From contig CAXXLX010000001.1 of the NCBI GenBank assembly GCA_963665235.2, positions 3,584,001 through 3,648,000 on the forward strand: a stretch of DNA of 64,000 nt, read 5' to 3'. A program made the translations under genes and the position numbers. This stretch comes from Candidatus Poribacteria bacterium. Its GTDB lineage: Bacteria; Poribacteria; WGA-4E; WGA-3G. Below are positions 1 to 51,803 of this stretch, piece after piece (the first letter of the stretch is position 1; each line of letters starts with the position of its first letter). Below the pieces are notes generated by a model. It searched no databases, was not told the DNA's origin, and saw only the letters and a program-made list of their open reading frames with translations.

Positions 1-391
1 GGAGAGCCAATTTCATCAGATGTTGGTGAATTTTATCAAAAATGCAATTGAAGCGATTGATGATTTGGCGTTATTGGATAAACCGTTTCAACCGCCGCGT
101 ATCGAGTGTCATGCCTACAGCAAGGAGGAATTTCTGTATATTGATATTACGGATAACGGGATAGGAATTATGCCTGAAGACGCTGAGCGCATCTTTACCG
201 CGGGATTTACGACCAAGGACCACGGAAGTGGATTAGGGCTGCATTCAAGTGCGAATTTCGTAATCAGTTCCGGCGGGCAAATTGAAGCCCTTAGCGAAGG
301 AAAAGGAAAGGGGACTACAATGCGTATCATGTTACCGCGCGCCTTAATTCAAGCCGGAAGTAGTGAGAATTCAGGGGGAGGTGCTAAATGA
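1..391 (+). CDS. Sensor histidine kinase, C-terminal HATPase domain (5'-truncated by window)
   Basis: N-box NFIKNAIEA, G1 DNGIGI, F-box IFTAGFTTK, G2 GSGLGL; overlaps start of the downstream response regulator. Confidence 0.9.
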   Translation, partial: ESQFHQMLVNFIKNAIEAIDDLALLDKPFQPPRIECHAYSKEEFLYIDITDNGIGIMPEDAERIFTAGFTTKDHGSGLGLHSSANFVISSGGQIEALSEGKGKGTTMRIMLPRALIQAGSSENSGGGAK

Positions 392-2286
392 CCGAACGCA
401 ATACACGTGTTTTAATCGTTGATGACCAACATGAGATTTATACCGATTTTCAGGAGATGTTGAAAGCGAAGAACAAGAAGGTGCTTTCAGACGATTTTGC
501 AGAGACGTTTTTTGCCGAAGAGTCCCAAAATGAGGTGCCGCATCTACCGACGTTTGAACTTTCATACGCTCCAAGTGGCGATGAAGCTTACGCTATGGTG
601 AAAACTGCCAAAGAATCTGGGCATCCATTCGCAGTAGCCTATATCGACATCAGGATGCCGCCGGGCATGGATGGCATTGAAACTATCCGGCGGATAAGAG
701 AATTTGAGCGGGACCTCGAAATCATTATCATGACAGCTTACACCGATAAACCGCTCCCCGAGATTGTCACGAATATGGAGTTACTGCACAAATTGCTCTA
801 TATCCGAAAACCGTTTGCGCGGGAAGAAATTCAGCAGATTACCCACTCCCTCGTTGAAAAGTGGAACATTGAACAAGAAGCGTTAAAACAACAGGAGCAA
901 CTCGCCTTATCAAATCAAAGACTTGAAACTGTCCTTAATGCGTCAGAAGATGCTATCGGACTCTTCGATGGGACGCAGCGGCTCCTGTTCGCAAATGAAC
1001 AGTATTGTGAGCTGTTTGACATCTCAAAAGAGCAGATTCGGCAGATGTCACCAGAAGATCACAGTGCACGCGTCAAGGCACGGTTCCAAAAATTGGAAAG
1101 CCCGGAGGCAATGCACGCCGATCCCTTTGAAAACGGTGAAAATATCCTAGAGACGATTGGAGATACCACTGCCGACAGTCCAGTGCCGGGGCGGTTTTAT
1201 CGCTCAATCCGGCCTGTTGAGGGAAGTGAGCCTGGGGTCACTGGTAAGGTTGTGAGTTATCGGGACATGTCAAAAGATGCTAAGATTCAGCGGATGGAAA
1301 ATGAAATTATGACACTGCGGGCTGAACTTAAAGCTACCTATTCTTTTGATGAAATTATCGGTAAAACCCCAGAGATGAAACGGTTATTCGCGCGAATCCA
1401 ACGGGCAACAGAGGGGGACATCACTGTACTGATTCAAGGGGAAAGTGGTACCGGTAAAGAGTTGGTCGCGAAGTCAATACATTATAATAGCGCACGCAAA
1501 GCCGGGCCATTCGTTGCGATTAATTGTGCTGCTATACCGGAGGCCCTGATTGAAAGTGAACTCTTTGGACATGAGCGGGGTGCTTTCACGGGCGCGCTTG
1601 AACGGCGCATCGGAAAGTTTGAACAAGCTAACACCGGGACGCTGTTTTTAGATGAAATTGGCGATATGCAACCGCCATTGCAAGCGAAATTACTGCGCGT
1701 CCTACAGGACCGGCAGTTTCAGCGTGTCGGCGGAACAGTCAATATCTCCACCGACATTCGTGTGCTGACAGCCACCAACCGAGATTTATCGAACCCTGTT
1801 GAAAAAGACAATTTCCGCGAGGACCTCTATTACCGTATCGCTGCCTTCCTTATTACGATTCCCCCCCTGCGGGAACGGCGTGACGATATTCCAATCTTGG
1901 CGAATTATTTCTTAAAGAAATATGCCGCAACTGCCAAAAAATCGATTACAGCCCTTTCTGCTGAAACCTTAGACGTGTTGAAGCAATACGATTTTCCTGG
2001 CAACGTCCGGGAGCTAGAAAACGCTATTGAAAGTGCTGTCTTGCTCGAAACGACAGAAACGCTGCAACCGGGCAGCCTCCCAAAGCATCTGCTACAAGCG
2101 GATTCACAAAACCTCACAGAATCCGAACCAGATGATACTGACATTTTTACGCTTGACGAAGTTGAACGGAAGACTATTGTTCATGCACTCAAGGTGACAG
2201 ACAATATCTCAAGAGCCGCAGAGGCACTAGGTATCAATAGGTCTACGCTGCATCGGAAATTGAAGAGATATGATATACCCAGCTAA
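388..2286 (+). CDS. Sigma54-dependent response regulator (REC-PAS-AAA+-HTH, NtrC family)
   Basis: VLIVDD and YIDIRMPPGMDG receiver, PAS-like LLFANEQYCELF, GESGTGKE, ESELFGHERGAFTGA, FPGNVRELEN, C-terminal Fis-type HTH. Confidence 0.95.
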   Translation: MTERNTRVLIVDDQHEIYTDFQEMLKAKNKKVLSDDFAETFFAEESQNEVPHLPTFELSYAPSGDEAYAMVKTAKESGHPFAVAYIDIRMPPGMDGIETIRRIREFERDLEIIIMTAYTDKPLPEIVTNMELLHKLLYIRKPFAREEIQQITHSLVEKWNIEQEALKQQEQLALSNQRLETVLNASEDAIGLFDGTQRLLFANEQYCELFDISKEQIRQMSPEDHSARVKARFQKLESPEAMHADPFENGENILETIGDTTADSPVPGRFYRSIRPVEGSEPGVTGKVVSYRDMSKDAKIQRMENEIMTLRAELKATYSFDEIIGKTPEMKRLFARIQRATEGDITVLIQGESGTGKELVAKSIHYNSARKAGPFVAINCAAIPEALIESELFGHERGAFTGALERRIGKFEQANTGTLFLDEIGDMQPPLQAKLLRVLQDRQFQRVGGTVNISTDIRVLTATNRDLSNPVEKDNFREDLYYRIAAFLITIPPLRERRDDIPILANYFLKKYAATAKKSITALSAETLDVLKQYDFPGNVRELENAIESAVLLETTETLQPGSLPKHLLQADSQNLTESEPDDTDIFTLDEVERKTIVHALKVTDNISRAAEALGINRSTLHRKLKRYDIPS

Positions 2287-2316
2287 ATGGTTGAATTGAC
2301 ATAAGGGACGGTCAAA

Positions 2317-2426
2317 TGTTGCAATCTGCTACACTTATTGCATTTTACAACATAACTTGCTATAACCCTTTTACTCTCAACGCTTTCTCCCTATATACAC
2401 TACCGAAACTGTTGCATTTTGAAACA
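2317..2426. promoter_or_regulatory. Putative enhancer array, copy 1 (three imperfect TGTTGCA-N3-TGCAACA palindromes)
   Basis: TGTTGCAATCTGCTACA 2317-2333, TATTGCATTTTACAACA 2336-2352, TGTTGCATTTTGAAACA 2410-2426. Confidence 0.6.
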
Positions 2427-2574
2427 GATTCTTAAAAAACACCTACCGCCAGCCCCTTAATATCGCGAGCACAGCTCGCTCCTACAGAAGAGGGATGTTG
2501 AACAATCACCGAAAAATATGGAGAACTAAATAACCCTACTTTCGGGTATGATTTTTTAGAGGGAGGGCTCTAAC

Positions 2575-3712
2575 GTGCGTAAATTGTGTTCAATTTTAAT
2601 TTTGCTAGTAGCAGTAGTATGCCAAACAGATAGTAGTGCAAACTATCGCCTTTATGATAATGGCACCGGGCATTGTGATTTAAATCCAGATTCTGTGATA
2701 TGCGATATCGGTAAACGCATAGGATTTGTGTCTCACGAGGGTGTAGGTACAACAGGATTTCTGATCGCACCTGATTTGCTTATGTCTTGTGCACATTGTG
2801 CGGCAGGTGACACAATCTCACGAGTTGTGCTAAATGACTTTTTGTCCAACATTATTTCACACAAACAGAACGTTTTGTCCGTGTTTCTCTTATGTTTGGA
2901 CGCTCTTCAGTCCTGTATGGACGATATATTTATAGCGAAGCGTTCCCCCTTTCTCTTTAGTCCCATAGGGACGATATGTTTGTTCGACACCATCCAAATC
3001 TGTGAGAAAAACAAAAACAATCAGTTAACTGACACAAGTCGTAATCTCGCTTGTCATGGAAGGTAACGAGACATTTGCATGGAACGAAGATCATCCGCAT
3101 ACGAAAAAACTGATAGAGTTATCCTCTAATACAGGTGAAGATATCCGCTTGTGGCAGTTACGAGAGCCTATCGGTTTCAAATACGGCTGGTTTTCACTGA
3201 CAAACGTTATTGTGAATTCGAATACAGGTGTGCATGTGGGTCATCCAAATTATCAGCCGAAAACTTATGTAAACCCTGGTGAAATTGGATATGATGCAGA
3301 AAATAGTCCCAAAAGGGTAGGGTGTGCGACATGGGCAGAAGGCGGCAGAAGTGGGTCACCTCTCATAGATTTGGATAGAAACAAAGTGATAGGTGTCGCT
3401 TATTTAGGCGGAAATTATACAACGGCTGCAACTTTTGTCGGGATATGGGATGAGTTGGTAACCCACCTTAATGCCAGCAAGTTAAAATATTTCCCGCAGG
3501 CAGTAGATTTTACCAATATCACAGAGATAACGATCCATGAGGATGCATTACCCTTGAAAATCAAACTGAAGTCTAAAAATAATAACCGTGTTGGCACCGC
3601 ATTGCGATGGCCTACTGGCAACTTCAAATTGGTAGCGAAAAAATGTAAGCGCGCCTTTACAGTGTGCATGAGCTGTCTTTCCAATTTTCTACCCTTCTAC
3701 CTATCCATTTGA
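2575..3712 (+). pseudogene. Secreted trypsin-like serine protease interrupted by a MITE
   Basis: Signal peptide and TGFLI...MSCAHC (His) in ORF 2575-3066; DIRLWQL (Asp) and GGRSGSPL (Ser) in ORF 3056-3712; removing 2820-3048 fuses them in frame. Confidence 0.85.
2820..3042. mobile_element. 223-bp IS982-like MITE with 6-bp target-site duplication AATCTC
   Basis: Ends ACGAGTTGTGCTAAAT / AACTGACACAAGTCGT; AATCTC at 2814-2819 and 3043-3048; ends resemble the IS982-type end at 35769-35784. Confidence 0.8.
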
Positions 3713-3771
3713 CAAAATATTTATACACTTTCCTTACAGCGGGCAATTTTACCGCAACTCGGAAAATATGT

Positions 3772-3879
3772 TGTTGCAATATGCTACACCTATTGTATTT
3801 TACAACAAAACCCGTTGAACCCTTTTACTCTCAACGCTTTTCCCTAATATCCCCCTAAAAACCGTTGCATTTTGAAACA
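3772..3879. promoter_or_regulatory. Putative enhancer array, copy 2, upstream of sigma54 promoter
   Basis: TGTTGCAATATGCTACA 3772-3788, TATTGTATTTTACAACA 3791-3807, CGTTGCATTTTGAAACA 3863-3879; diverged duplicate of 2317-2426. Confidence 0.65.
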
Positions 3880-4002
3880 ACCGCCTAAAAACATCTATCC
3901 CCATTTTTGTAGATATAGATAATTATATATATCCGCTGAAGCCTTGATAGACAAGGCTTTTCAGCAGACTTAATAGCAAATAACAAGCCCGATTTTACTT
4001 GT

Positions 4003-4018
4003 TGGCACGGTTTTTGCA
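4003..4018 (+). promoter_or_regulatory. Sigma54 (-24/-12) promoter
   Basis: TGGCACGGTTTTTGCA, GG-N10-GC consensus, downstream of enhancer array. Confidence 0.85.
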
Positions 4019-4190
4019 CATAGGGTGATTGTGAATATAAATTGATCAATTAACCCGATTATGCAATCCTTCAGATAAAATAGCATAACGGGGAAACCGA
4101 TAAAACTTTCCCAACGAATTGGGTTAATTGGATATTAAAATTTTTTATTAACTTAAACAGTTTTTTAACTTAAAAAGGAGAGTCATTCCA

Positions 4191-6272
4191 ATGAAAATGA
4201 CAAATTTCTATTTTGTTCTCACGTTAACTTTAGTTTTAAGCGTTTGCTTTGTTGTATCACCCTCTCATGCAGGACGTGCTATAGCTTCCGGTAGTGCAGA
4301 TGCCAATTCCGCCTCTGGACAGGTCTATTTGCATCTGTCTGAGGGGGACATGCCTTACGTGACCGGTTTCGGAATGGTCGAAATTGATGTTCAGGATGGA
4401 GACTTTCATATCGTTGAGGGCGAACTTTGGGCAAGCTACGAGGATAGTTTAACCCACAATACGATTTCGGGTGTCGTGGCTGGTACCCCAGCTCAGGTGA
4501 AAATTGTTTTGGCTATGGGTCATATAGGGCATGACCAAACCACAGGCGATACCTTTGAAACGATGTACACGCCATCAGATAATACCGAATCCAATCAACC
4601 CCCCGATAACAATGATTCCAAGGACGAAAATCCACTTGACCCTAACATGATGCGCCCTGGAGATTCCGATGACGAGAATCAGAGTCCTAGCCTGCATCTG
4701 AATAGGGAGAGAAGGGATAGAAACCCCGACGACAATAACCAAAACCCACTTGACCCTAACATGATGCGCCCTGGAGATTCCGATGACGAGAATCAGAGTC
4801 CTAGCCTGCATCTGAATAGGGAGAGAAGGGATGAAAACCCGGATAACAATGACCAAAACCCGTTCGACACTAACATGGCACCGCCTAATAATCGCAACGA
4901 TAACCAAAGTCCGTTGCAAGTCACCCTGAATCCGAATAGCGAGAGAAGGGATGAAAACCCGGATAACAATGACCAAAACCCGTTCGATACTAACATGGCA
5001 CCGCCTAATAATCGCAACGATAACCAAAGTCCGTTGCAAGTCACCCTGAATCCGAATAGCGAGAGAAGGGATGAAAACCCGGATGACAATGACCAAAACC
5101 CGTTCGATACTAACATGGCACCGCCTAATAATCGCAACGATAACCAAAGTCCGTTGCAAGTCACCCTGAATCCGAATAGCGAGAGAAGGGATGAAAACCC
5201 GGATGACAATGACCAAAACCCGTTCGATACTAACATGGCACCGCCTAATAATCGCAACGATAATCAGCCTCCCAGGTTGAATTTGGATAACGAGAGAAGG
5301 GATAGAAACCCGGATAACAATAACCAGAATTCGTTCAACGATCTCATGGCACCGCCTAATCAGGGCAACGATAACGATAATCCGTTGCAAGTCACCCTGA
5401 ATCCGAATGCCGAGACAAAGGATGAAAACCCGGATAACAATAACCAAAACTCATCCAACCCTAACATGGCACCGCCTAATCAGGGCAACGATAACGATAA
5501 TCCGTTGCAAGTCACCCTGAATCCGAATGCCGAGACAAAGGATGAAAACCCGGATAACAATAACCAAAACTCATCCAACCCTAACATGGCACCGCCTAAT
5601 CAGGGCAACGATAACGATAATCCGTTGCAAGTCACCCTGAATCCGAATGCCGAGACAAAGGATGAAAACCCGGATAACAATAACCAAAATCCAGGACCTA
5701 AACCGAACGTCAATAGCGAGACAAAGGATAGAAACCCGGATGACAACAACCAAAACTCATTAAACCGTAGTGGGATGCGCCGTGATGATTCCAATAACGA
5801 GACTCCAGCACTCGGTCCCAACGTCAAAGAGGAGAGAAGGGATAGAGATTCCGGCGATGATAACGAAGATTCATCCGACAATACCAGGAGGCGCTCCAAG
5901 GAGGACGATAACGAAAATCGGGAACGCGGTCCCAACGTCAATGATGAAAAAGTGGTAGATGATGCATGTCGCAACATCGTTGAGTACTTTCAGACCGGCG
6001 AGGGCAAAGCGAAAGCGGTCGATGCAACGGAACGGCTCCTGATGTATGCAGAAAGCATCGCAGCGTCTGAACTTCCGACAAATGCTGAACGGGCCAAGGA
6101 ATATGCTGAGTTTCATGAAGAGTTCGGTAAAGTCCTCACGGAATTCGCTGCAGGCCTTGAACAGGAGGGCGTTTCCGATCAGACGCGCCAACAGTGGGAG
6201 ACCATCGTCCCGTTAGTCAGGCTGGCACAACGCGAATTTAGCCAAAGAGAGGTTGACCCTGAAACCCCATAA
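4191..6272 (+). CDS. Secreted protein with long Asn/Asp/Pro-rich tandem repeat region
   Basis: RBS AAGGAG, signal peptide ending SPSHA, about 11 repeats of 38-40 aa, helical C-terminal domain. Confidence 0.85.
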   Translation: MKMTNFYFVLTLTLVLSVCFVVSPSHAGRAIASGSADANSASGQVYLHLSEGDMPYVTGFGMVEIDVQDGDFHIVEGELWASYEDSLTHNTISGVVAGTPAQVKIVLAMGHIGHDQTTGDTFETMYTPSDNTESNQPPDNNDSKDENPLDPNMMRPGDSDDENQSPSLHLNRERRDRNPDDNNQNPLDPNMMRPGDSDDENQSPSLHLNRERRDENPDNNDQNPFDTNMAPPNNRNDNQSPLQVTLNPNSERRDENPDNNDQNPFDTNMAPPNNRNDNQSPLQVTLNPNSERRDENPDDNDQNPFDTNMAPPNNRNDNQSPLQVTLNPNSERRDENPDDNDQNPFDTNMAPPNNRNDNQPPRLNLDNERRDRNPDNNNQNSFNDLMAPPNQGNDNDNPLQVTLNPNAETKDENPDNNNQNSSNPNMAPPNQGNDNDNPLQVTLNPNAETKDENPDNNNQNSSNPNMAPPNQGNDNDNPLQVTLNPNAETKDENPDNNNQNPGPKPNVNSETKDRNPDDNNQNSLNRSGMRRDDSNNETPALGPNVKEERRDRDSGDDNEDSSDNTRRRSKEDDNENRERGPNVNDEKVVDDACRNIVEYFQTGEGKAKAVDATERLLMYAESIAASELPTNAERAKEYAEFHEEFGKVLTEFAAGLEQEGVSDQTRQQWETIVPLVRLAQREFSQREVDPETP
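4629..5880 (+). repeat. Intragenic tandem repeats (2x114 bp, then two blocks of 120-bp units)
   Basis: ccacttgaccc at 4632 and 4746 (114 bp); cgttcga at 4861/4981/5101/5221; atccgaatgccgagacaaag at 5401/5521/5641. Confidence 0.95.
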
Positions 6273-6284
6273 CCGTTGGAAACA

Positions 6285-6323
6285 TGTAGGGCGGGTTTTG
6301 ACATCCGCCCTGCACGCTTTTTT
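6285..6323 (+). terminator. REP-like hairpin / probable intrinsic terminator
   Basis: TGTAGGGCGG...CCGCCCTGCA stem followed by TTTTTT. Confidence 0.55.
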
Positions 6324-6354
6324 ACTCAAACAATTCAACCCTAAGCACAAAGAG

Positions 6355-6413
6355 AAAGGAGCGGGCATTCCTCACCGCCTTAAAGGGACACGGTTTCCTG
6401 CCCGAACGTTTTG
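6355..6413 (+). mobile_element. Orphan IS200/IS605 (IscB/IsrB-type) element end
   Basis: Same architecture as 16072-16128: AAAGG..CGG-stem-TTCCTC-hairpin(TAAA)-GTTTCC-stem-CCGAA..TTG followed by ATGA. Confidence 0.6.
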
Positions 6414-7445
6414 ATGAACAAGCAAAAAATATTTCTATCTTTCCTAATATTTTGCATTTTCGGGGCAATCTTAACGCTAATGTGGCCTCGAGCGGAAAAA
6501 CAGGACGAAAAACCTGCTATCTCCGAGGTTGTACCTACCCCGAAAGAGCTATCGGAACGTGTCCAACGTGCCGATTCTTCTGGTCAAAAGCAACCCGTTG
6601 ATGTTTGGGAGAGCTGGGTACATGAACGGACTGAGGCAATGCTTCAGTATCTACAAAACAATTCTGAAAGTCAAGGTATCCTGTCGGGCTCTCTTGATGC
6701 GGACCTGCTTGCACAACTGCGGAAATCCTTTTTATCGGAAAACCTTGCCTTTGCCGAAGTGCTGCAGCAAACTACGGATACCCCGCCACCGGTTGACATC
6801 GGTTTCAGTGAGCTTTTCCCAGGTGAGGACTATAGTGCTGAGGACGACAGTGTTGAGGACTATAGGTATAAGGGGCCGCAGGAGGTGGAAGCACTCCTTG
6901 AGACGTTTGGACACAGGGCTGCAGATCCGCTCCTTGATGCGAAGTATCCGCAGGAGGAGTGGCTTCAGCGTACCCTTGCACAAGGTTACACTATAGATAG
7001 TTGGGAAGATTATGCGGGTTTTCTAACAGCACGACGTAATCTCGTCGGTTTGGAAAACGCACCCGACGTGTGGAACTCCGGACGATTAGGCATTTCGCCA
7101 ACCTCGGATTTTGAGACGTATAAAGCAGCGTATATGGACAGGAAAATCTGGGAATATGCGCAGCTGAAGGACGCAAAACAGATTGACTCCCGAGTAAATG
7201 GTGGTTTCTTTAAAGACGATGGAACTTTCCTCCCATTTGCACCACAGCGGGTTTATGTTGAAAGGGTAGGGGCCAGTGCAGCGTTTATCGGTACATCCCT
7301 CTCTGACAGACAGAAATTTGATTTATTGACGCGCGGTGTCAGTCCAGAGGGTTATGAGATTATTTATATCGATAAAGATGGCACACGGCTTTCAGGACCG
7401 CCGCCGCTGCTTTCTCGGCAGGAGCTTCTCACTAATAACGACTGA
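6414..7445 (+). CDS. Hypothetical membrane-anchored protein (N-terminal TM)
   Basis: Hydrophobic N-terminus IFLSFLIFCIFGAILTLMW; C-terminus resembles that of 48406-49161. Confidence 0.8.
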   Translation: MNKQKIFLSFLIFCIFGAILTLMWPRAEKQDEKPAISEVVPTPKELSERVQRADSSGQKQPVDVWESWVHERTEAMLQYLQNNSESQGILSGSLDADLLAQLRKSFLSENLAFAEVLQQTTDTPPPVDIGFSELFPGEDYSAEDDSVEDYRYKGPQEVEALLETFGHRAADPLLDAKYPQEEWLQRTLAQGYTIDSWEDYAGFLTARRNLVGLENAPDVWNSGRLGISPTSDFETYKAAYMDRKIWEYAQLKDAKQIDSRVNGGFFKDDGTFLPFAPQRVYVERVGASAAFIGTSLSDRQKFDLLTRGVSPEGYEIIYIDKDGTRLSGPPPLLSRQELLTNND

Positions 7446-7509
7446 GTATCTTGAGGGCCTGCAACGTCCCCTATTGTTTGTACACATTTCCACCCTCCAC
7501 CCGTTTGTA

Positions 7510-8772
7510 GGCGCGCTTTGATGAAGATTAAGAAATTAATTCGGTAATTTCTGTTTTTATGTTATCCTATTGTCCCAGGAGGTATTGTCTTATGTCAAAA
7601 CGCCATGAACTTGAACTCAGTAAAGATGAACGCCAAAGACTGATTGAACTCCGCGATACAGGGGAACCCGCTTATCTTCGGGAACGTGCGGCTGCCCTGC
7701 TAAAGATAGCCGCGGGAACTTCTCCACACAAAGTCGCCCTCAAAGGGCTGCTAAAGAAGCGAGATCCGGACACTGTTTATGCCTGGCTTCGCCGATACCA
7801 AGAAGAGGGCATTCAAGGATTGTTTCATAGACCGGGCCGTGGCCGCAAACCCGCGTTCGCCCCCAAATCCCCCGAAGAAGCAGAAACCGAGGCGTTGACG
7901 GCTATAGGACAAGACCCGGGACAAGTCAAGGCACATCAAACGCGCTGGACGCTTCGCACGGTTGGCGAGGTTGTGCCGTGGCTTGCTAATATCTCTGTGC
8001 CGGGTATCCATCAAATCTTCTCACGCCTGGGCATCAGCTATAAGCGTGCTAGACTGTATTTGCAGAGTCCGGATACAGACTATGCCAAGAAAATCGAACG
8101 GATACAGCAAGTTTTAGAAGAGACCCATCAAAACCCACAGAACACGGCTGTGCTTTATCAAGATGAGTTCTCATTTTACCGAAACCCCACTATAGCAAAA
8201 GACTGGGCACAGACAGGGACAAAAACGCCATTAGCCCATCAGAGTTATCAATCGGATAAAACTATTTATGGTATCGGTGCTATGAACCCCCATACAGGAG
8301 ACGTTGTTTATCAGCAAGTGCCAAGCTGCACAGTTGTAGCCCTCCATACATTTTATACCGAGATTTGCCAACGCTATCCCGACAAGCAACGGATTTATCT
8401 TATCCAAGATAATCGGGCGATACATTTTCACGCCAATTTGATGGAGGCACTGCTGCCGCAATCGGTCTCCTTTGTGAAACCGACCCCGCCGAATTGGACC
8501 GGAAAACTTTCCGAGAAAATCGGTGAACTGACAAAACTCCCGATTGAAATAGTGCAGCTGCCGACTTATGCGCCGTGGACAAATCCGATTGAGAAGTTAT
8601 GGCGATGGGTGCGGCAATCGGTTCTGCATATCCATCGCCTCTGCGATGAGTGGGAGACCCTCAAAGACAAGGTGCTTGACTTTATGACACAGTTTAGAGG
8701 CGGCTCACAAGCATTGCTACGCTATGTCGGATTATTACCGAATTAATAAATTAATCTTCATGAAAGCACGCC
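7510..8772 (+). mobile_element. IS630-family insertion sequence
   Basis: About 39-bp imperfect TIRs GGCGCGCTTTGATGAAGATTAAGAAATTAATTCGGTAAT / ATTACCGAATTAATAAATTAATCTTCATGAAAGCACGCC; TA duplicated at 7508-7509 and 8773-8774. Confidence 0.9.
7592..8746 (+). CDS. IS630-family transposase
   Basis: HTH N-terminus, DDE motifs YQDE, IQDN, PWTNPIEKLW; GGAGG RBS before ATG 7592. Confidence 0.92.
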   Translation: MSKRHELELSKDERQRLIELRDTGEPAYLRERAAALLKIAAGTSPHKVALKGLLKKRDPDTVYAWLRRYQEEGIQGLFHRPGRGRKPAFAPKSPEEAETEALTAIGQDPGQVKAHQTRWTLRTVGEVVPWLANISVPGIHQIFSRLGISYKRARLYLQSPDTDYAKKIERIQQVLEETHQNPQNTAVLYQDEFSFYRNPTIAKDWAQTGTKTPLAHQSYQSDKTIYGIGAMNPHTGDVVYQQVPSCTVVALHTFYTEICQRYPDKQRIYLIQDNRAIHFHANLMEALLPQSVSFVKPTPPNWTGKLSEKIGELTKLPIEIVQLPTYAPWTNPIEKLWRWVRQSVLHIHRLCDEWETLKDKVLDFMTQFRGGSQALLRYVGLLPN

Positions 8773-8840: not shown

Positions 8841-11800
8841 CTATTTTGTCACCTGAACTGTTCCGCTTGATGCAACTGCTGCCTTGGAGGGGTCATACAT
8901 AGCCTCTGCAGCAATCGGCGGCACCGTAAATGTGCCTTGCGTTACCACTCTAAGTGGATAGTAGAACTTTTGCTGCTGTTGGTATCGAAGCGAGCCATAC
9001 AGGATAAGTCTATCATCCCGAATGTCTATATAATCGGGTCTGAAGTCTTGCTGTTGCCTTTGTGATGCTTGTCCGCCAGCGGCTCTCGGAGCCGACCTTT
9101 CCCCCCATAGTCCACGTGCGCTAGAGACCAATCTCGGATTCTCGACCTCAAATCCGGCAGGCAACATATCGACGATGACTACGTTCTCCAGGTCGCTTGT
9201 GAGTGCCTTCACACTTATCTCAGCAATTATCAGTTCACCCTGTTGAAAGACGTTTTTGACTCGGGTGCGGTCTGTCGTAAGATAGCGGCGGTTTATCTGC
9301 AACTCACGTCCATATTCCTCAATATAGGAGTCTCTGCTTATCCCGAAAGCCTCCCAATAAAAGTAACAGGTGCCTTTTCCCTGTACCTTAAGTGCTATCT
9401 GTGCACCATCCCAATCCGAGCCGATATGTTGGGCTCCGGTTGAATCGAAGTTAGCGAGATGTTCGCCGTTTTGGCTAATTGTTCCAGTGAATTTCTGATT
9501 CGGTTGTTTTTTCAAAAACTTACCGAGTGCCAGGAAAGCGAAGGCGTTCTCTTGTGTAGTGCCCCACCGTTGTCCTTTGGATGCTGCGTCGGTTAAACTT
9601 TCAACGAGTTTAGGAATTGCGGGGTGGTCGGCCTTAACTTCTATCAGCACATCCAGCATGATGGCTTGTGCGCGAATAGGGGAGTCAAAATTTCGGCCCG
9701 TATCCCGTCGTGCCTCCTTTTCGAGGTCTACGGAGTCAGGCAACATTGAGAGAGCCATCTTGAGATTGCCGCTGAGCGCGAACGCGCCTGCGAGCTGAAA
9801 TTGGCTATAATCATGAAGTTCGCTTAATCGGTTGTTATTGAGATAGTGCATCACAGGTTTTTCAGGTTGCCCGGCTGCTGCCAGTACGTAGCAGGCATAA
9901 GCAGCACGTGATAGGTCATAGCTATCGGCTTTTTCATTTGGTCTGTGAATGCTTCCAGCACGTTTCGCTTGTCGTCTCAACCCTTCCAACATTCTATTGT
10001 AAACAGTTTCAGGGACTTTGTATCCCGCTTTTCGTGCTTCGACAAGAAAGTGAGAAGCGTAGATGCTACTCCAATTATTGATATAGGCTCTTCCTTGCCA
10101 TCTTCCTTGCCAATAAGCGAAGTAGTGTTCTGGTTGTAACATATCCTCCAATTTTGCGATGCCCACGTCAATATATTCGTCAATTTTTCCATCCGCTGCC
10201 AGTGCCGGTTCAACGATACGGGCAAGCTCGCTGAGATGGAGCAGCGTGAAAATCCGGCTCGTTGTTTGCTCCAGGCACCCGTGCGGATATTGTATTAGAT
10301 AGCGAAGTCCACCTGCAAACCTAACGGTGGGAAGCGGTGACACTGTCAGCATAAATTCAGAGGTATCCGCTCGCAGATTTGAGGGGAAGATGAAATCCGC
10401 AGGTTCACCTGCCCTGACAATCCCTTGACCTGTCTTTGTCACAGGCGGTGCCGCTGACCGAAGCGGTAGCTGAACTGGGGCAGATTGTATCTCTTCGCCA
10501 TTGCCAGTAGCGGACAGGTTAAATGTGACAATACCAACAGCATCGTGTGCAATAACGTCAAAATAGAGTTGCCCCTCCTTGTCGGCTGCAATCTCCATCT
10601 CTTTTTGAAGTGAATTTCCTTGAGCGATAACTACATGGTCAATAGAACCGTCTTCCGCAAGGAGCTGGACGGGCCCGCTTGCATCTAATTTAACGGTGAA
10701 ATTACCGCTTTCACTAGTGCCGTTATAAACTGAAATAGGCACGCGAATCCGATCGCCGCCGGAGAGAAAACGTGGGAATGTCGGTGTTAGCACTACCGGT
10801 TCACGCACCTGAATCTGTCCGGTCCCTGAACCGTAATCCGTGCCAGCGAACGCGACCGCCATTATACGTAGTGTGCCATTGAATTGGGGTATCTTAAAAC
10901 GGACACTGCCATCACCATTCGCGTCGGTTGTCATTAAACCTGACCATAGCGACACAGGTTTCACCCGGATTGCACTGCTTCTGTTAATCCGTCGACCCCC
11001 TGCTATACCCGCACCCACATATCCTGTATAGTCACTAATTGCCATACTAGCCCTAGCCTGCATTAATGCAGGCAACCCTTCTTCATAAAGCATCAGAGTC
11101 GTCAAATCGGCGAGCGATTCAATCGGTTTGATAGGAAAGCGATTGCTCTTCATGATTGCGGTGTAAAATTCATTCGCAGAGGTTTCAAGTCTTCTCTGTT
11201 GATAAAAATAAGCGTGTGGTTCAGGCGTTTCTGTGTTTGTCAATTGAAGAATGCCTTCATCAACAGCGGCAATGCTAACTCGGTAAGGTTTCCCTTCGCT
11301 TTCACCACGCACCCGAAACTTTATCTCCACCTCGCGGTGAGAGCGGGTCTGTTTAGGAGCATCTATTTCTACCTGTAGCTTGCGCGGTTCCGCATCGAGT
11401 TTTAAGGGAACAATCCCGAAAGCCCGAGCGGATGCATGTTTGCCCAGGGACGTTGTAGAACGGATTAGTAGGGCAGAGAGATAAACGTTTGGTGCGTAGG
11501 TGTTCTTAACCGGAATTGTCACCGCTGCCGTGCTGTCTTTCACCATGAATGTCTGATAACTTAACACCTTCTCCTGTTCAATTGTTAGCAGCACCTTACC
11601 GGGGAAGGGGGCTTTAATATGCAACTTCGCCGCTTCTCCGGGACGATACGCGGTTTTATCAAGTGTCATCTCAAGCTTCTCTGGACTTTCCCCTGACCAA
11701 GGCACGCCGCCCCATTCGGAAACAAAGAATTGCATTGAAACTTTTGCACCGCTCTCAACATCCTCGATCGCTACACGATGGACACCATACGCGGTCGGGG

Positions 11801-14387
11801 TGAAACTGAAATTTGCTATTTCCGCCGTTGACGTTAAAGTATAGGATTCCAACTCTGTAGCTATAGGTGAAGAGCGTTGCCTGCTTCTTCGCGACTGGGA
11901 AATAGCAGAAATTGTCGCCTTTAAAGTTCGTCCGGGGACAGTATTCCCCTCCGGATCAATTGAAATATAGTCAAAGGTGGCCTTTTCATTCAATTTGACT
12001 GTTCCCGATTGTGGACGTTTGAGCCCGACATAATGGGAGTACGGATGAACAGAGGCCCATTTTGAATTAGTGACCGAGCGTCCGCCGGGTTCTTGGACAG
12101 TCGCGCCAATATTAACATTGAGTGAAGAGGGCGGTTTCAGGCCTTCAGGAAGTGTAATCTGATATGTAGCTTTTCCATCTACATTCGTTATAGCTTCGTC
12201 AAGGCTCACGCCATCGTGTTCAAAAGTGCGCGTTGGATCGGAGAAGGTGAACGAACGCCACTTCTCAGGCGGGGTATAAGGCACTGCTTGAAGAGCGTAA
12301 TAGGCACTAACTTTTCTACCTACTGCTGGGGTACCGAAGAGATTCATCGCCTTAACCTCCAAATTAATCTCGTCGCCCAGCATATAAACGTCCTTATCTA
12401 CCGCTACTGAAACCTTCATCCGCTCGGGTATAAAATCCTCAATTTGAAACGAACCACCCCCAATCTGTTTTTTATCCACCCACATTCTAGCACTGTACGA
12501 ACCTGTTGGTGTAGCGGCGGAGAACGGTATCTGAATTTCACAAGCACCTTCAGGCCCCGTTTGCGTCTGAAACTCTTTGAACACTGAGTCGTAAGGGGTT
12601 AGAATCTCAACACGTATTGGTAGCGAGGCGGGAGCTTTACTGTACTTGTCGCGTACAATTCCTACAAGATTGACCGTTTCACCGGGACGATACACCTTGC
12701 GTTCCGTATAAAGAAATGCCTCATATCCCTCTGTCAAAAAAGGCGCGCCACTAACATTAAACGCACTTGTTGAGAGATGGTACGAGCTCAATTGGAGAAA
12801 GGAGAAATCATCGCCTTTGGAAACAGTAAGAAGCAGTGAGGCATTCGTAAGGAGCGGTGAGGCCTCCTGAGCTATTTTATCAGCACCCGACGAAAATTTA
12901 AGAAAACCCGCAGCATCCGTTTTGCCTGTGAGTAGTGTTTCTTTCTTATCTCTATTAATCAGTTGAACTGTTGCCTCGGAAATCGGGTCTAAAGAATCCA
13001 GTGAATTGACCCAAACCGATAGGACATCGTCAGTTCTTTTCGTGACAATACCTATATCCGTAACAAGAAGCAATTGCTCTATCTGCACATTATGATGATT
13101 CGCGTTAACCATCACTTTGAAAATACCGCCTTGGGCATCACGGAGTGATTTCTTAAGCGGGAATGGCACAATTATCTCTTCATTCAGTCGTGATGCAATC
13201 TCAAGCTCTTCGTTATGGATGAGTATAGGGAGGTCAAAAAAGGAGAGCTTTGCAATACTGAACAGGACGCGGTCTACGTTAGTTGTTGCTAATTTGAGGT
13301 CGGTAGTGCCTTTACGGGGTAGGAAAAGATTTTGATTGGTAAAACGAATCCGTGGCTGTAAATCTGGAATTTCAAACCTTTTAACATAGCTATCTTTCAA
13401 AATCGAACCGGTTTCCGAAACTAAACCGCGTTTAATGTGAACGGTATATGCTGTTCTACACTTGAAATTACCCCGAATTTCTATCGCGCGATGCGTTTCT
13501 AATAATTGGGACGAAACGGATGGGACAATACTTACGTGTTGACGAAAATTTTCAAGTGGAACGTCTGAATTAAACGAGATTGTGATGGTTGGTATGCCAT
13601 CTCTGTCATAAATATTTTCGCGCTCAATGCGGAGTTCGTTAATCTCACCTAACACTATTGGTAAGATGTTCGTCTCTTTAAGCCCAATTTCGGTCCCTGC
13701 ACATTTAAATCCTTTTTTGACCTGCACCCAAAGATATCGCCCTTCAATAACTCGTGAAATATCACTGATTTCTATGAGGGCGGTTTTTGTAATTGCATTC
13801 TGGGGTTGAAAGGTGTAAGGTATTTCAGTCTCGTTCTCCGTTACAATTGAAAGGAATTCCGATAGACCCTCAATATTGACAGCATAGTTAAAGGTTACCG
13901 TCCCAATAGCCTTCGCCTTTTTCAATTCCTTATCGTATTGGAAACCGAGTTCAGCATGTTCTACCTGAAAGGGGGGGGTTGAATGGGTGAACGTTCGCTC
14001 CCCTGTGAGAACAAAATCCGAGGATGGATTCAGTACTGTTGAGAGTTCAAATGTGTAATCAATAGAGGGTGCCAAAGCCTCTTCTAAGAAGAAACCGATT
14101 TGATTAAATCCTACCCACCGTGCTTTTCCTTCAACCGCAGGTGTGACCTTAATGGCATCGCTCGGCAATTCAGTGAAAAGCAATTCGTTGTTAATTACGG
14201 ATTTAGAGAACGTTATCAAAAAATCTGCCGTGCTATGATTATTCTCAATCTCCGCACCGTGTGCGAACGATTGGACACTGAATTCTGTCTGCTTCTCCTC
14301 ATCTGCATCCACAAACCGGACCGGGAAACACACGATGATGGGAAAAATAAAGGTTATAAAACCGATTAAAAACTTTTTGGATACCAT
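8841..14387 (-). CDS. Bacterial alpha-2-macroglobulin family protein
   Basis: YRPGETV MG2 motif, AAVDEGIL, thioester YPHGCLEQ, WGTTQENA, DMLPAGFEVEN, AEAMYDP. Confidence 0.95.
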   Translation of the reverse strand: MVSKKFLIGFITFIFPIIVCFPVRFVDADEEKQTEFSVQSFAHGAEIENNHSTADFLITFSKSVINNELLFTELPSDAIKVTPAVEGKARWVGFNQIGFFLEEALAPSIDYTFELSTVLNPSSDFVLTGERTFTHSTPPFQVEHAELGFQYDKELKKAKAIGTVTFNYAVNIEGLSEFLSIVTENETEIPYTFQPQNAITKTALIEISDISRVIEGRYLWVQVKKGFKCAGTEIGLKETNILPIVLGEINELRIERENIYDRDGIPTITISFNSDVPLENFRQHVSIVPSVSSQLLETHRAIEIRGNFKCRTAYTVHIKRGLVSETGSILKDSYVKRFEIPDLQPRIRFTNQNLFLPRKGTTDLKLATTNVDRVLFSIAKLSFFDLPILIHNEELEIASRLNEEIIVPFPLKKSLRDAQGGIFKVMVNANHHNVQIEQLLLVTDIGIVTKRTDDVLSVWVNSLDSLDPISEATVQLINRDKKETLLTGKTDAAGFLKFSSGADKIAQEASPLLTNASLLLTVSKGDDFSFLQLSSYHLSTSAFNVSGAPFLTEGYEAFLYTERKVYRPGETVNLVGIVRDKYSKAPASLPIRVEILTPYDSVFKEFQTQTGPEGACEIQIPFSAATPTGSYSARMWVDKKQIGGGSFQIEDFIPERMKVSVAVDKDVYMLGDEINLEVKAMNLFGTPAVGRKVSAYYALQAVPYTPPEKWRSFTFSDPTRTFEHDGVSLDEAITNVDGKATYQITLPEGLKPPSSLNVNIGATVQEPGGRSVTNSKWASVHPYSHYVGLKRPQSGTVKLNEKATFDYISIDPEGNTVPGRTLKATISAISQSRRSRQRSSPIATELESYTLTSTAEIANFSFTPTAYGVHRVAIEDVESGAKVSMQFFVSEWGGVPWSGESPEKLEMTLDKTAYRPGEAAKLHIKAPFPGKVLLTIEQEKVLSYQTFMVKDSTAAVTIPVKNTYAPNVYLSALLIRSTTSLGKHASARAFGIVPLKLDAEPRKLQVEIDAPKQTRSHREVEIKFRVRGESEGKPYRVSIAAVDEGILQLTNTETPEPHAYFYQQRRLETSANEFYTAIMKSNRFPIKPIESLADLTTLMLYEEGLPALMQARASMAISDYTGYVGAGIAGGRRINRSSAIRVKPVSLWSGLMTTDANGDGSVRFKIPQFNGTLRIMAVAFAGTDYGSGTGQIQVREPVVLTPTFPRFLSGGDRIRVPISVYNGTSESGNFTVKLDASGPVQLLAEDGSIDHVVIAQGNSLQKEMEIAADKEGQLYFDVIAHDAVGIVTFNLSATGNGEEIQSAPVQLPLRSAAPPVTKTGQGIVRAGEPADFIFPSNLRADTSEFMLTVSPLPTVRFAGGLRYLIQYPHGCLEQTTSRIFTLLHLSELARIVEPALAADGKIDEYIDVGIAKLEDMLQPEHYFAYWQGRWQGRAYINNWSSIYASHFLVEARKAGYKVPETVYNRMLEGLRRQAKRAGSIHRPNEKADSYDLSRAAYACYVLAAAGQPEKPVMHYLNNNRLSELHDYSQFQLAGAFALSGNLKMALSMLPDSVDLEKEARRDTGRNFDSPIRAQAIMLDVLIEVKADHPAIPKLVESLTDAASKGQRWGTTQENAFAFLALGKFLKKQPNQKFTGTISQNGEHLANFDSTGAQHIGSDWDGAQIALKVQGKGTCYFYWEAFGISRDSYIEEYGRELQINRRYLTTDRTRVKNVFQQGELIIAEISVKALTSDLENVVIVDMLPAGFEVENPRLVSSARGLWGERSAPRAAGGQASQRQQQDFRPDYIDIRDDRLILYGSLRYQQQQKFYYPLRVVTQGTFTVPPIAAEAMYDPSKAAVASSGTVQVTK

Positions 14388-14736: not shown

Positions 14737-14752
14737 TGGCACGGAAATTGCA
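14737..14752 (+). promoter_or_regulatory. Sigma54 promoter (predicted TSS about 14763)
   Basis: TGGCACGGAAATTGCA, consensus -24/-12. Confidence 0.85.
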
Positions 14753-14791
14753 TGTATTATGCTGAATAAGGCTAACAAGTAGGAGTTTATC

Positions 14792-15045
14792 GTAAAGATC
14801 ACCCAGCTAAAGCTTGGGTGCTTTGACACAGCGTAGCCACACACGTTCCCTGTCAAGGATTAAGTTCTTCACTACAGTAATATATCGGGTATTCTGAGCG
14901 TGGCAGCTCATAAGATGTCTCGGATGCTCCCCAAGTCCGACCCCTCTCTGAATACCTGATCTGGATGGGGAAATATACAACCTCTCGGAAGTAAAACAAA
15001 TGACTTACGGTCATCCGTTTTACTTCCGTAGGGAGATTACAAACT
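14792..15045 (+). ncRNA. omegaRNA scaffold (IsrB-associated); guide from the 5' flank about 14763-14791
   Basis: About 250-nt structured non-coding region directly upstream of isrB; includes CGGATGCTCCCCAAGTCCGACCCCTCT and hairpin CGGAAGTAAAAC...GTTTTACTTCCG. Confidence 0.75.
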
Positions 15046-16098
15046 ATGTTTGTTCCGGTTCAAAGCAAGTCTGGCAAACCCTTAATGCCGACACATTCTA
15101 ACAAAGCGGGTGTGCTAATCAAAAAAGGATTGGCAACACCCTATTGGCGTAATGGTATCTTTTGTATTCGGTTAAACTACGAGACGAAAGAACACACACA
15201 GAAAATCTGTGTGGGCGTGGATCCTGGTTCCAAGAAAGAAGGCTTCACGGTGAAGTCTGAGGCTCACACATATCTGAATGTGCAAGCCGATGCACATAAC
15301 AAGGTTGGAAAAAAAGTTAAAAAAAGAGGTATATTGAGACGGGGTCGTAGAACCCGGAAATGTCCAAACCGGAAACATCGAACAAATCGAGTAGCGAAGA
15401 AAGAACGTCTCCCGGCAGGCACCCGTGCCCGTTGGGATTGGAAACTTCGGATATTAGATTGGTTGTCTAAACTCTATCCTGTTACACACGTCTGTGTTGA
15501 GGATATCAAAGCGCGGACTATTGAAAATGCTAAGAAATGGAACACGGCTTTTAGTCCGCTTGAGGTGGGCAAGACATGGTTTTATGGTGAAATAGAAAAG
15601 CGGTGGGAACTGCTAACCCTTCAAGGGTGGCAGACAAAACAGCTGCGTGACAAGCTCGGTTTGAAAAAGTCATCTCAAAAGTTGGCAGAGACTTTTGAGG
15701 CACATTGTGTTGACGCGTGGTGCTTAGCCTACCATACCGTGGGGGGGGATGCGGAAACCGTGGACAATACAGACATATTCTGCATTTCACCGATACCCAT
15801 ACGCAGGCGGGAACTGCATCGGCAGAACCCACAAACTGGGGGAAACAGACCTCGCTATGGCGGAACTGTGCTAACGGATACACTTATCAAAAACACACTG
15901 ATCAAACATGGTAAGCATGGTATCACACGTCCGAGGTCCCACCGAGGACATCCTATTACGGGTATTAATGCGAAAGGGTTGTTTTCTATCTATAGCTTAG
16001 AAGGGGAACGCCTCACAACGGGGGCGAAACGCACAGATTTTCAAGTGCTAACACGCTTGAACTTCAACTATAAAGGCGGATTTTCCTCCCCCGCATAA
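15046..16098 (+). CDS. isrB: IsrB, RNA-guided RuvC nickase (RRXRR/PLMP, no HNH)
   Basis: KPLMP, RuvC-I VGVDPG (D59), Arg-rich bridge helix RRGRRTR, RuvC-II VEDI (E152), RuvC-III HCVDA (H220/D223), 350 aa, no HNH motif. Confidence 0.85.
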   Translation: MFVPVQSKSGKPLMPTHSNKAGVLIKKGLATPYWRNGIFCIRLNYETKEHTQKICVGVDPGSKKEGFTVKSEAHTYLNVQADAHNKVGKKVKKRGILRRGRRTRKCPNRKHRTNRVAKKERLPAGTRARWDWKLRILDWLSKLYPVTHVCVEDIKARTIENAKKWNTAFSPLEVGKTWFYGEIEKRWELLTLQGWQTKQLRDKLGLKKSSQKLAETFEAHCVDAWCLAYHTVGGDAETVDNTDIFCISPIPIRRRELHRQNPQTGGNRPRYGGTVLTDTLIKNTLIKHGKHGITRPRSHRGHPITGINAKGLFSIYSLEGERLTTGAKRTDFQVLTRLNFNYKGGFSSPA

Positions 16099-16128
16099 AT
16101 GCTGGGGGTTTCCAATCCGAAGAACTTG

Positions 16129-47819: not shown

Positions 47820-47899
47820 CTGATGTTGGCGCGTCCAATGCCTCTATAGCGTGTTAATAGCTCGAAAACGGTTTCCAATAGTGAAATTTTTGAACCTTC

Positions 47900-48011
47900 A
47901 GGACTTACGCAGCGCGTTGATAAACCCTAATGATAGTGGAATCTAGAGCAAGACGTAGCGGGCAGGGAGACCCCGCCCCTACAAGGTTTCTGATAAATTT
48001 GCGTAAGTCCT
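47900..48011. mobile_element. 112-bp MITE containing a REP-like hairpin
   Basis: TIRs AGGACTTACGCA / TGCGTAAGTCCT; direct repeat AACCTTC at 47893-47899 and 48012-48018. Confidence 0.85.
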
Positions 48012-48232: not shown

Positions 48233-48248
48233 TGGCACGAGAATTGCT
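48233..48248 (+). promoter_or_regulatory. Sigma54 promoter
   Basis: TGGCACGAGAATTGCT, GG-N10-GC. Confidence 0.85.
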
Positions 48249-48405
48249 AATAGGCATATAGAAATTCTTTGTGTGTTGAAACCGTTTTCTATCCAAAGAT
48301 GTTTAACGTCAGGCACGCCACGATAAATTGCACAACCTCTCACCAAGGGGCTATTAAATCCAGTCTCTTATCATAGGTGTGTCGTACGAAATTTGGAGGT
48401 ATAAG

Positions 48406-49161: not shown

Positions 49162-49200
49162 AACTGATCGGACGCAAATTCAGCGAAAGGAGTCAACAAC

Positions 49201-49779: not shown

Positions 49780-50186
49780 CGTGCTGCTAGTAGATTTGCA
49801 TAAGTCATTTTAAGTAATGTTAACTTTAAGGCAGGTAACCCTCTCGTTATCTGCCTTTTCCCTTTCAGCTTCAGCAAAACCTTGCGTAATACCTTAGTCA
49901 AAATATGCATTTCCTATTACAACACAAAGATACAGTGGAAGTGGGAACCGCGGCACGAGTTTACCATAGGCATATTGCTCTGATGGGGCGAGAGATTTAA
50001 GATGCAGCCCATGCTTCCTTTGCCTCGCAGCATACCTTGTGTATACACCAAAAACTTGATTCGACAAATTTTTGGTTGCCCCAAAATCCATGGCACCAGG
50101 GCCCCCGTGGTTCAGACAATTTCTCCTTTTCCCCCTTCTACTCAACCTTTTGACAACATATTTGGGCACTTATTGTAATATTTCAT

Positions 50187-50214
50187 TTGACATTTTTTGA
50201 GAATATGCTATACT
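50187..50214 (+). promoter_or_regulatory. Sigma70-type promoter
   Basis: TTGACA-16-TATACT with TG extension. Confidence 0.55.
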
Positions 50215-50262
50215 ATCTGATGTGAGGGGACGCGTCCGAAAAAACTACTTTCTTGTCGATAC

Positions 50263-51710: not shown

Positions 51711-51803
51711 ACAGGAAAATGACCCAAAAACCGGGCATTTTTGGCGAACGTATTGCGATACGAGAGGATATTCAAATGCCTGAGAAGGAGGAGGACAATC
51801 AAA

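Follow-up and report, generated by a model that had tools for sequence, protein, structure and literature searches.

A conserved membrane-anchored protein encoded beside a variable secreted protein: a possible two-gene module of Poribacteria

In a stretch of 64,000 nucleotides (nt) from a Candidatus Poribacteria bacterium (assembly GCA_963665235.2, contig CAXXLX010000001.1, positions 3,584,001 to 3,648,000 of the forward strand; hereafter the window, whose own numbering is used unless a position is marked C1 or C2), a gene for a secreted repeat protein is followed by a gene for a protein with a single N-terminal membrane anchor. Do the two form a functional unit, and is this unit one of many? 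The initial annotation described at this place, called here locus 1, a sigma-54-controlled cassette made of a kinase, an activator, an enhancer array, a promoter, a secreted repeat protein and an anchored protein (6414-7445), and all these elements are indeed present. It also pointed to a C-terminal likeness between this anchored protein and the product of 48406-49161 in a second cassette, and proposed a lineage-specific export or assembly system in which a conserved anchor would chaperone, nucleate or display a variable secreted subunit, perhaps at a host interface. We tentatively read locus 1 as one copy of a Poribacteria-restricted two-gene module in which the anchor would bind its own variable partner in the periplasm, a reading that we prefer while holding it somewhat short of probable.

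The two anchored proteins are A0 (6411-7445, forward strand; 344 amino acids, probably starting with the ATG at 6414), which has a single hydrophobic segment near its N-terminus, and B0 (48379-49161, forward strand; start probably M10, at 48406). When they were compared by BLASTP, we obtained out-of-register alignments alone and the claimed likeness was not recovered. By hhalign, a profile of 17 sequences of family A matched one of 49 sequences of family B with a probability of 93.8% (E 1.8e-7, 88 columns) in the very register proposed earlier, pairing GGFFKDDGTFLPFAPQRVYV... with GATFENGKVYVYYPNQVHV... and PEGYEIIYID with PAGVEIIDLD, and a more diverse family A profile (36 sequences) gave 83% (E 9e-6, 64 columns). 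The score of 48.7 lies above all of 60 column shuffles (mean 15.2, standard deviation 2.8, maximum 25.6) and above a reversed-alignment control (26.2). AlphaFold2 modelled residues 150-344 of A with a predicted local distance difference test score (pLDDT) of 93.4 and a predicted template modelling score of 0.84, and the C-terminal domain of B with a pLDDT >90; in both models this domain has the same order of elements, namely a helix, four strands forming a meander, a helix, a strand and a short helix. The profile similarity is significant, and together with the model comparison it indicates that the shared C-terminal domain is real and probably homologous.

Apart from this domain the two proteins differ. 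A0 consists of an N-terminal transmembrane (TM) segment, a linker, a helical domain and the C-terminal alpha/beta domain, and B0 of a TM segment with a long helix, a disordered linker, a SPxGxGPYP motif and the C-terminal alpha/beta domain. On their sequences, A and B are two distinct families, which have in common a C-terminal domain of about 65-90 residues alone. A0 is a short form which lacks the C-terminal tail of about 100-150 amino acids found in most homologues; its closest relatives (P0001-P0003, 84-96% identity) end at the same point. The N-terminal part of family B is found elsewhere too: its highly conserved segment (MLREYFTNRW and the TM helix) stands likewise at the start of proteins whose C-terminal parts are unrelated, as in B11 (C1:935886-936932), B12 (C1:938239-939261) and B14 (C1:878539-879444), one of which is preceded by what looks by eye like a gene for a sigma factor of the extracytoplasmic function (ECF) type. 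The TM module may be an independent unit.

We then asked how widely the two families occur. Family A is found at 7 places in the genome that carries the window and in 137 of 176 genomes of the phylum: in all 111 other scored genomes of the window's own taxonomic family, in 4/11 and 19/29 genomes of its sisters, in 2/8 of another family and in 0/16 elsewhere; among 1.84 billion clusters, 591 representatives were found at E<=1e-3. Family B occupies 17 places in the same genome at E<=1 (the 15 best of which were followed up), its paralogues there being 32-41% identical, and it has matches in 131 of the 176 genomes, all within the same three taxonomic families. The 331 relatives of family B in a species-genome collection are, where named, all Candidatus Poribacteria metagenome-assembled genomes, and the 76 family B loci that were kept come from Poribacteria, a few being labelled 'uncultured bacterium'. 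Judging from these collections, A and B are multi-copy families restricted to Poribacteria.

Neither family could be attached to anything described. A0, B0 and both secreted partners (4191-6269 and 49201-49776) have no Pfam family at E<=0.01 and none in NCBIfam, PADLOC gave 0 families for these four module proteins at E<=0.1, and the 47 that were scanned of the 148 family A representatives listed gave no library match. Sequence searches of solved structures with the anchored proteins returned TM and coiled-coil noise alone, and ESM Atlas gave no usable match for the C-terminal region of A or B. Foldseek against the PDB found nothing at E<=1e-3 for either model; in VIA-align the best rows were coiled coils on the long helix for the B model (Z 6.8) and rows dominated by the helical domain for the A model (Z 5.0), and second looks at the two models gave best Z values of 3.8 and 4.2. 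As to a likeness to the NTF2-like or cystatin-like alpha+beta cone, known for instance from VirB8-type periplasmic domains, residues 153-260 of B, as part of the larger model, aligned with 5kuy_G (a designed protein) and 3k7c_A (NTF2-like), both at Z 2.6 with a root-mean-square deviation of 2.9-3.0 over 53 aligned residues, and with 7vwd_C at Z 2.0; all these fold searches used larger models dominated by helices and do not establish that the shared beta domain has no known fold. Full-text literature searches on Poribacteria yielded no description of either family. Neither the two-gene module nor the shared domain is known to the libraries searched.

The genes next to the anchors were examined in other genomes, for family B around 114 genes at 76 loci. 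In 76 of the 114 cases, an open reading frame (ORF) on the same strand starts within 300 nt downstream and either has a hydrophobic N-terminus or belongs to one of two recurrent neighbour clusters, whose N-termini were counted without being scored; under a stricter filter (hydrophobic N-terminus and at most 330 amino acids) 68 of the 114 genes pass. The gaps listed between B and its partner are mostly 0-40 nt, and several of the gene pairs overlap. As for the other family B genes, 20 have a next gene on the opposite strand, 7 a close ORF without a hydrophobic N-terminus and 5 another family B gene, while in 4 the next gene is more than 300 nt away and 2 lie at a contig edge. In the window's own genome, B0, B5, B6, B7 and B11 have secreted partners; B4 and B12 are separated from theirs by an ORF of 371 amino acids which resembles an RRXRR-family ORF of the window described below.

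For family A, 19 of 34 ORFs (29 loci in other genomes) have directly upstream a signal-peptide ORF of 116-196 amino acids, with gaps of -3 to 233 nt, although one of these upstream ORFs (L123) is probably the detached N-terminus of the A gene itself. The remaining ones follow another A ORF (5) or other ORFs (5), have a neighbour on the opposite strand (4) or lie at an edge (1). The gene order is thus opposite in the two families: partner then A, B then partner. A conserved neighbourhood among homologues, on which the earlier proposal depended, was therefore found in both families.

The two members of the pair evolve very differently. BLAST clustering joins the anchors in a single group, whereas the 89 partners split into 26 clusters. 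By hhalign we could link two A-linked partner clusters (91%) and some B-linked ones (91%, 84% and 75%), and no link was found between A-linked and B-linked partners; 85 partners gave no Pfam family above the cut-off in a scan at E<=0.05. Some local features recur. Short alternating small-residue stretches (xAxAx) are present in 32 of 89 partners versus 23 of 330 control ORFs; many lie close to the N-terminus of the mature protein or at its extreme C-terminus. Many B partners that cannot otherwise be aligned end in [VI]P[FW] (loci L025, L033, L036, L040, L045, L053, L065, L069, L076 and L078, and further L085, L086, L089 and L091-L093); in the window's genome 17 of 7650 six-frame ORFs of at least 100 amino acids have this ending, 2 of them being B partners (C1:3216572-3217078 and 3981226-3981684). 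An N-terminal histidine of the copper 'histidine brace' type was considered and dropped, a histidine near the end of the signal peptide occurring in 42 of 89 partners and 45 of 159 controls, which is too weak a difference. Across genomes, the comparison supports a real and widespread pairing of a conserved anchor with a variable secreted neighbour, as the initial annotation had suggested from the window alone.

Within the window this pairing is clearest at locus 2 (48233-53081), a textbook family B module. A sigma-54 -24/-12 consensus found by pattern scan (TGGCACGAGAATTGCT, 48233-48248, forward strand), with ATGCAAAATATGC repeats upstream, precedes B0, and 39 nt past the B0 stop begins the gene of its variable partner, a signal-peptide protein of 192 amino acids (49201-49779, forward strand). 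This partner has no Pfam match, a word-indexed homologue search returned the protein itself alone, and the relatives found are two or three distant ones, all in other Poribacteria. A second sigma-54 activator (51741-53081, forward strand; 446 amino acids; Sigma54_activat, E 5e-72) lies beyond ORFs which look by eye like transposase fragments. The idea of a second cassette of the same logic holds in that promoter, anchor, secreted protein and activator are all there, but the anchor is of a distinct family and the gene order is reversed. We also noticed upstream of locus 2 an element of about 113 nt with inverted ends (AGGACTTACGCA...TGCGTAAGTCCT, 47899-48011), of which the genome holds more than 60 copies at 72-95% identity.

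At locus 1 the secreted gene precedes the family A gene on the same strand, which is the usual family A order, with a spacer of 138 nt. The secreted protein (4191-6272, forward strand; 693 amino acids) has a signal-peptide-like N-terminus, an N-terminal domain of about 110 amino acids with a beta-rich pattern, D/N/P/Q-rich repeats and a helical C-terminal domain of about 116 amino acids (5916-6269). The tandem repeats (4627-5689) are built of 114- and 120-nt units, the 120-nt unit being present in 7.4 copies with 90% matches. The whole protein has no match in Pfam or NCBIfam, and the helical domain taken alone has no Pfam family above the cut-off; its two paralogues elsewhere in the genome (50-56% identity) form the C-terminal ends of a cytochrome b protein (L017 892-1866) and of an FMN_bind protein (L018 385-1866).

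How could anchor and partner work together? The anchor would be a bitopic protein of the inner membrane, in which a single TM helix follows a very short N-terminus in the cytoplasm and the bulk lies outside. Because the partner carries a signal peptide and most of the anchor lies beyond the membrane, the two should meet in the periplasm, where the outward-facing part of the anchor would bind its own neighbour and act as a dedicated tether or as a folding or holding partner, each genome keeping matched pairs. At locus 1 the partner would have grown to 693 amino acids by acquiring D/N/P-rich repeats and an added helical end domain, and a sigma-54 promoter would stand in front of the pair, with the adjacent kinase and activator probably acting on its enhancer module. 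Since the pairing persists in two families despite the turnover of partner sequences, and since the spacing is tight, we argue for functional coupling; direct binding would be its simplest form, and both the binding and the role of tether or chaperone are what we infer from this pattern.

A known precedent for such an arrangement is Lif and its lipase (lipA-lipB type of Pseudomonas and Burkholderia), where an anchored periplasmic foldase is encoded on the same strand beside the one secreted client. As in that system, an N-terminally anchored protein is encoded next to a secreted one and the pairing is one-to-one. However, the module proteins have no match to lipase chaperones or to any other Pfam or NCBIfam family and no structural match, and the Poribacteria partners, which the anchors would presumably bind, are not lipases, are hypervariable and come in up to 15 or more pairs per genome. 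Another precedent is TapA-TasA of Bacillus subtilis biofilm fibres, where the gene of a secreted beta-rich subunit has next to it that of an accessory protein anchored to the cell. Here too an anchored protein gene stands beside the gene of a secreted protein with a beta-rich pattern, but no TasA/camelysin (Peptidase_M73) match was found in the window proteins or, at E<=0.05, in the 85 partners, the Poribacteria are diderm and have many divergent pairs instead of one, and a dedicated signal peptidase was not noticed. By analogy, the module resembles both systems in logic only.

Several observations weigh against the proposed module. About one third of the family B genes have no secreted neighbour, and six other family A paralogues in the window's genome have no true small secreted gene upstream, the one flagged upstream ORF among them looking like the N-terminal piece of a family A gene that has been split. 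Gene calls and 'signal peptides' were obtained by crude ORF and hydrophobic-N-terminus rules, with no trained predictor. The searches described above give no known fold or family that would offer a functional handle for the module proteins, and a conserved Cys, His or acidic cluster, which would speak for catalysis or metal binding, is missing from the shared domain; this absence is compatible with a binding role and proves nothing. Finally, the partner at locus 1 is atypical, with 693 amino acids versus the usual 120-260, and the resemblance of its N-terminal domain to the usual family A partners is weak (hhalign 10.9%, E 0.0028, 27 columns). Against family A partner cluster 2 the values are 8.8-10.9%, the alignment setting GFGMVEIDV...GELWAS against G.G..V.V...G.IWA. 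Because its partner is unusual and resembles family A partners weakly in its N-terminal domain, locus 1 is rated, as a presumed member of the module, below locus 2.

The missing neighbours would agree with a different view, in which the two proteins are co-expressed envelope proteins that never touch, have separate roles and stay adjacent through shared regulation and duplication as a unit. Block duplication of gene pairs alone would keep them adjacent, as tandem arrays illustrate. We consider this a minor possibility, unlikely on balance but the most serious of the alternatives: the neighbourhood rule holds in two families with opposite gene order and with many partner clusters that cannot be aligned with each other, the genes are separated by very short gaps or overlap, and a pairing that persists amid partner turnover is what functional coupling predicts.

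A second alternative concerns locus 1 alone, where the adjacency might be fortuitous, an unrelated sigma-54-driven secreted protein having come to lie beside an orphan short-form A gene whose true partner was lost. The atypical size and make-up of the partner and its non-significant likeness to A partners would agree with this, as would a 138-nt spacer longer than most, the partnerless A paralogues elsewhere in the genome and the activity of mobile elements at this place, namely a miniature inverted-repeat transposable element in a protease gene and a polymorphic insertion sequence (IS). The latter is of the IS630 type (7519-8760, forward strand; transposase ORF 7559-8746, with DDE_3 and helix-turn-helix (HTH) domains) and lies outside the module; it did not truncate the A0 gene because it begins 74 nt past the stop, and it is absent from some related populations, position 7518 being followed at once by 8761 in contigs of the DNA runs X3 (0 differences) and X7. 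Chance adjacency is nevertheless quite improbable in our opinion: a secreted gene followed by an A gene on the same strand is the usual order of the family, the close relatives P0001-P0003 keep the same short form, and no -24/-12 consensus or other evident promoter was seen between the two genes. In addition, an RNA-library contig of a relative (6156-6428) runs from the end of the repeat gene, over its stop and through the spacer, 18 nt into the family A gene. It is one of several metatranscriptome contigs from two runs, 90-99% alike, which cover 4233-4442, 6156-6428 and 7310-7521. Transcript starts are not visible in such contigs, which are a weak hint of expression and may stem from relatives or from library DNA; bins 3001-3900 and 5401-5700 are uncovered in both X1 and X2 and further bins in X2 alone, from which we draw no inference.

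It could also be imagined that the genes form a polymorphic effector/immunity-type pair, the secreted protein being antagonistic or directed at a host and the anchor protecting the producer's envelope. Like polymorphic toxin systems, the module exists in many divergent two-gene copies per genome, often arrayed, with one secreted and hypervariable member, and the divergence of the anchor paralogues given above is what matched specificity would predict. We hold it very unlikely, in that no toxin, immunity, enzyme or defence family was recognised in the 85 partners or the four window proteins, no secretion-system or other delivery genes were noticed beside the modules, and the anchor, which keeps a recognisable domain in all copies, would make the more conserved member the 'immunity' protein, which is unusual. 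Equally remote is a fibre or surface-layer pair, in which the secreted protein would polymerise by edge-strand exchange and the anchor nucleate or tether it in the manner of TapA-TasA, for while the beta-rich pattern of the partners, their enrichment in xAxAx stretches and the [VI]P[FW] ending of several B partners are in its favour, Pfam searches of the window proteins and the 85 partners returned nothing related to TasA, pilins or chaperone-usher parts, we noticed neither a dedicated signal peptidase nor an usher or a sortase, and a self-assembling subunit is not expected to be hypervariable. More generally, we noticed no export or assembly machinery beside the modules.

We therefore return to the reading of a two-gene module with a periplasmic anchor-partner contact, and turn to its regulation, beginning with locus 1. 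The window opens within a histidine kinase gene, cut by its start, whose C-terminal ATPase domain (2-391, forward strand) matches HATPase_c (E 3.6e-18). It is followed by a sigma-54 AAA+ activator of 632 amino acids (388-2286, forward strand) in which Pfam recognises Response_reg, PAS_8, Sigma54_activat (E 1e-70), AAA_lid_14 and a Fis-type HTH (HTH_8); the GAFTGA loop is readable in the translations of this activator and of that at 51741-53081. An enhancer-like module of about 120 nt, made of the direct repeat families D1-D3, is present twice on the forward strand, at 2317-2438 and at 3772-3891, with 80-88% identity between the copies. The second copy lies 112-231 nt upstream of the -24 element of a sigma-54 promoter consensus (TGGCACGGTTTTTGCA, 4003-4018, forward strand, found by pattern scan), itself 173 nt upstream of the ATG of the repeat gene at 4191. 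Downstream of the first copy no -24/-12 consensus was found by pattern scan.

The consensus used throughout, TGGCAC-N5-TTGC(A/T), is matched by TGGCACGGTTTTTGCA at 4003 and by TGGCACGAGAATTGCT at 48233, and in its strict form it occurs 54 times in the whole 5.3-Mb genome, both strands included. The genome has one match to rpoN (PF04552, 191.8 bits, C1:1876116-1876589). The same promoter pattern is found 95 nt upstream of an ORF which we take, from a reading by eye, to be a glnA-type glutamine synthetase, and it also precedes chaperone-like and alpha-2-macroglobulin genes. Module and promoter of locus 1 recur together at three loci of the genome with 69-70% identity over about 258 nt (C1:3374042-3374295; C1:4249633-4249886, reverse strand; C2:60400-60659), upstream of genes for exported or membrane proteins. 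Since rpoN is present, since the pattern precedes other genes such as the presumed glnA, and since module and promoter recur, the promoter pattern of locus 1 is credible. As an observation apart, one of these three copies has the identical -24/-12 16-mer (at C1:4249648) and two have TGGCAA variants; by eye, the genes that follow encode a YWTD-repeat-like secreted protein, a small protein with a tail of the type IX secretion system kind and a membrane protein of 612 amino acids.

Compared with NtrC-type control, locus 1 fits in its kinase, its receiver-AAA+-HTH activator with GAFTGA, its enhancer module at 112-231 nt, its TGGCAC-N5-TTGCA promoter and rpoN. It differs in that the enhancer module is duplicated, the first copy standing before a broken protease gene with no promoter consensus after it. 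Nothing else in the regulatory half departs from an ordinary NtrC-type sigma-54 unit. The broken gene, not mentioned in the initial annotation, lies between activator and promoter (2575-3712, forward strand) and encodes a trypsin-like serine protease that has a signal peptide; the reading frame is broken into the ORFs 2575-3066 and 3056-3712, with a Trypsin_2 match on the second. The gene is interrupted by a repeat element of about 225 nt (about 2814-3042), copies of which are found with 92-100% identity at C1:2387485, 3231945, 2446207, 2010866 and 2607564, and two more with 82-84%. The inner unit of this element was also seen in many tandem arrays.

Is sigma-54 control then a property of the class? 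In other genomes 9 of 92 motif-bearing B genes have the consensus in the 400 nt upstream of them, an enrichment over the roughly 0.7 predicted from the 29 sites present in 887 kb. At 4 of 29 family A loci it is found within 1.5 kb upstream, these being 4 of the 7 sites in those loci. In the window's genome it directly precedes B0 and B4, and precedes B2 across two intervening genes. Activator genes adjoin L110 and L083. ECF sigma genes flank family A modules at no fewer than 5 of the 29 loci (L106, L111, L118, L123 and L124), L108, a near-duplicate of L106, showing the same ECF ORF by eye; 10 of the 76 B loci contain long fusion proteins that look ECF-like by eye, and for the one in L091 Pfam confirms this. 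Because a minority of copies have the consensus and ECF sigma genes flank others, sigma-54 does not define the class, and the description of a sigma-54-controlled cassette has to be given up at that level. Rather, the modules appear to tend toward alternative sigma factors, sigma-54 being a minority input. The possibility that the anchored proteins are single-pass anti-sigma factors of ECF sigma factors was considered and rejected: the stretch ahead of the hydrophobic segment is about 5-12 residues long in A0 and, counted from M10, in B0, with no cytoplasmic anti-sigma domain, and for this reason they cannot be classical anti-sigma factors.

Some further observations were made around these sites. 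At three places (window 14737-17634, C1:673102-674850 and C1:933607-935703) an RRXRR-family ORF (PF14239) is followed gaplessly by an exported-protein gene with the same MLGVSNPK(I/N)LM prefix, and two of the three RRXRR ORFs sit between a family B gene and its partner. That of the window lies 294 nt after the sigma-54 consensus at 14737 (forward strand), which with another at 14465 (reverse strand) faces outward from one spacer. One of these two sites is 63 nt before an alpha-2-macroglobulin gene of 1848 amino acids (8841-14387, Pfam), and a second such gene in the genome is likewise preceded.

Poribacteria are uncultured and largely sponge-associated. One may go further and picture an undescribed and heavily expanded pairing system of the periplasm, with dozens of matched pairs per genome (at least 15 of the B type and up to 10 or more of the A type), each made of a new-fold membrane tether and a co-diverging hypervariable partner and each gated by its own alternative-sigma input, either a sigma-54 activator or an ECF sigma factor, which together would provide a repertoire of envelope or released proteins, switchable and open to diversification, toward the sponge host, phages or neighbours. 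This extension is rather unlikely in its full form; if true, the system would be functionally comparable to variable surface proteins, with a dedicated anchor per variant. Annotation gains two families that can be defined, the domain common to both and a rule on their neighbours, and sigma-54 no longer defines the cassette. Families A and B, both multi-copy and each found in roughly three of every four genomes sampled from the phylum, have had no name, family model or fold match, and their fixed association with rapidly evolving secreted proteins suggests an envelope system invisible to current annotation. Diversifying exported proteins with dedicated anchors would be a concrete candidate for the interplay of Poribacteria with their host or with phages.

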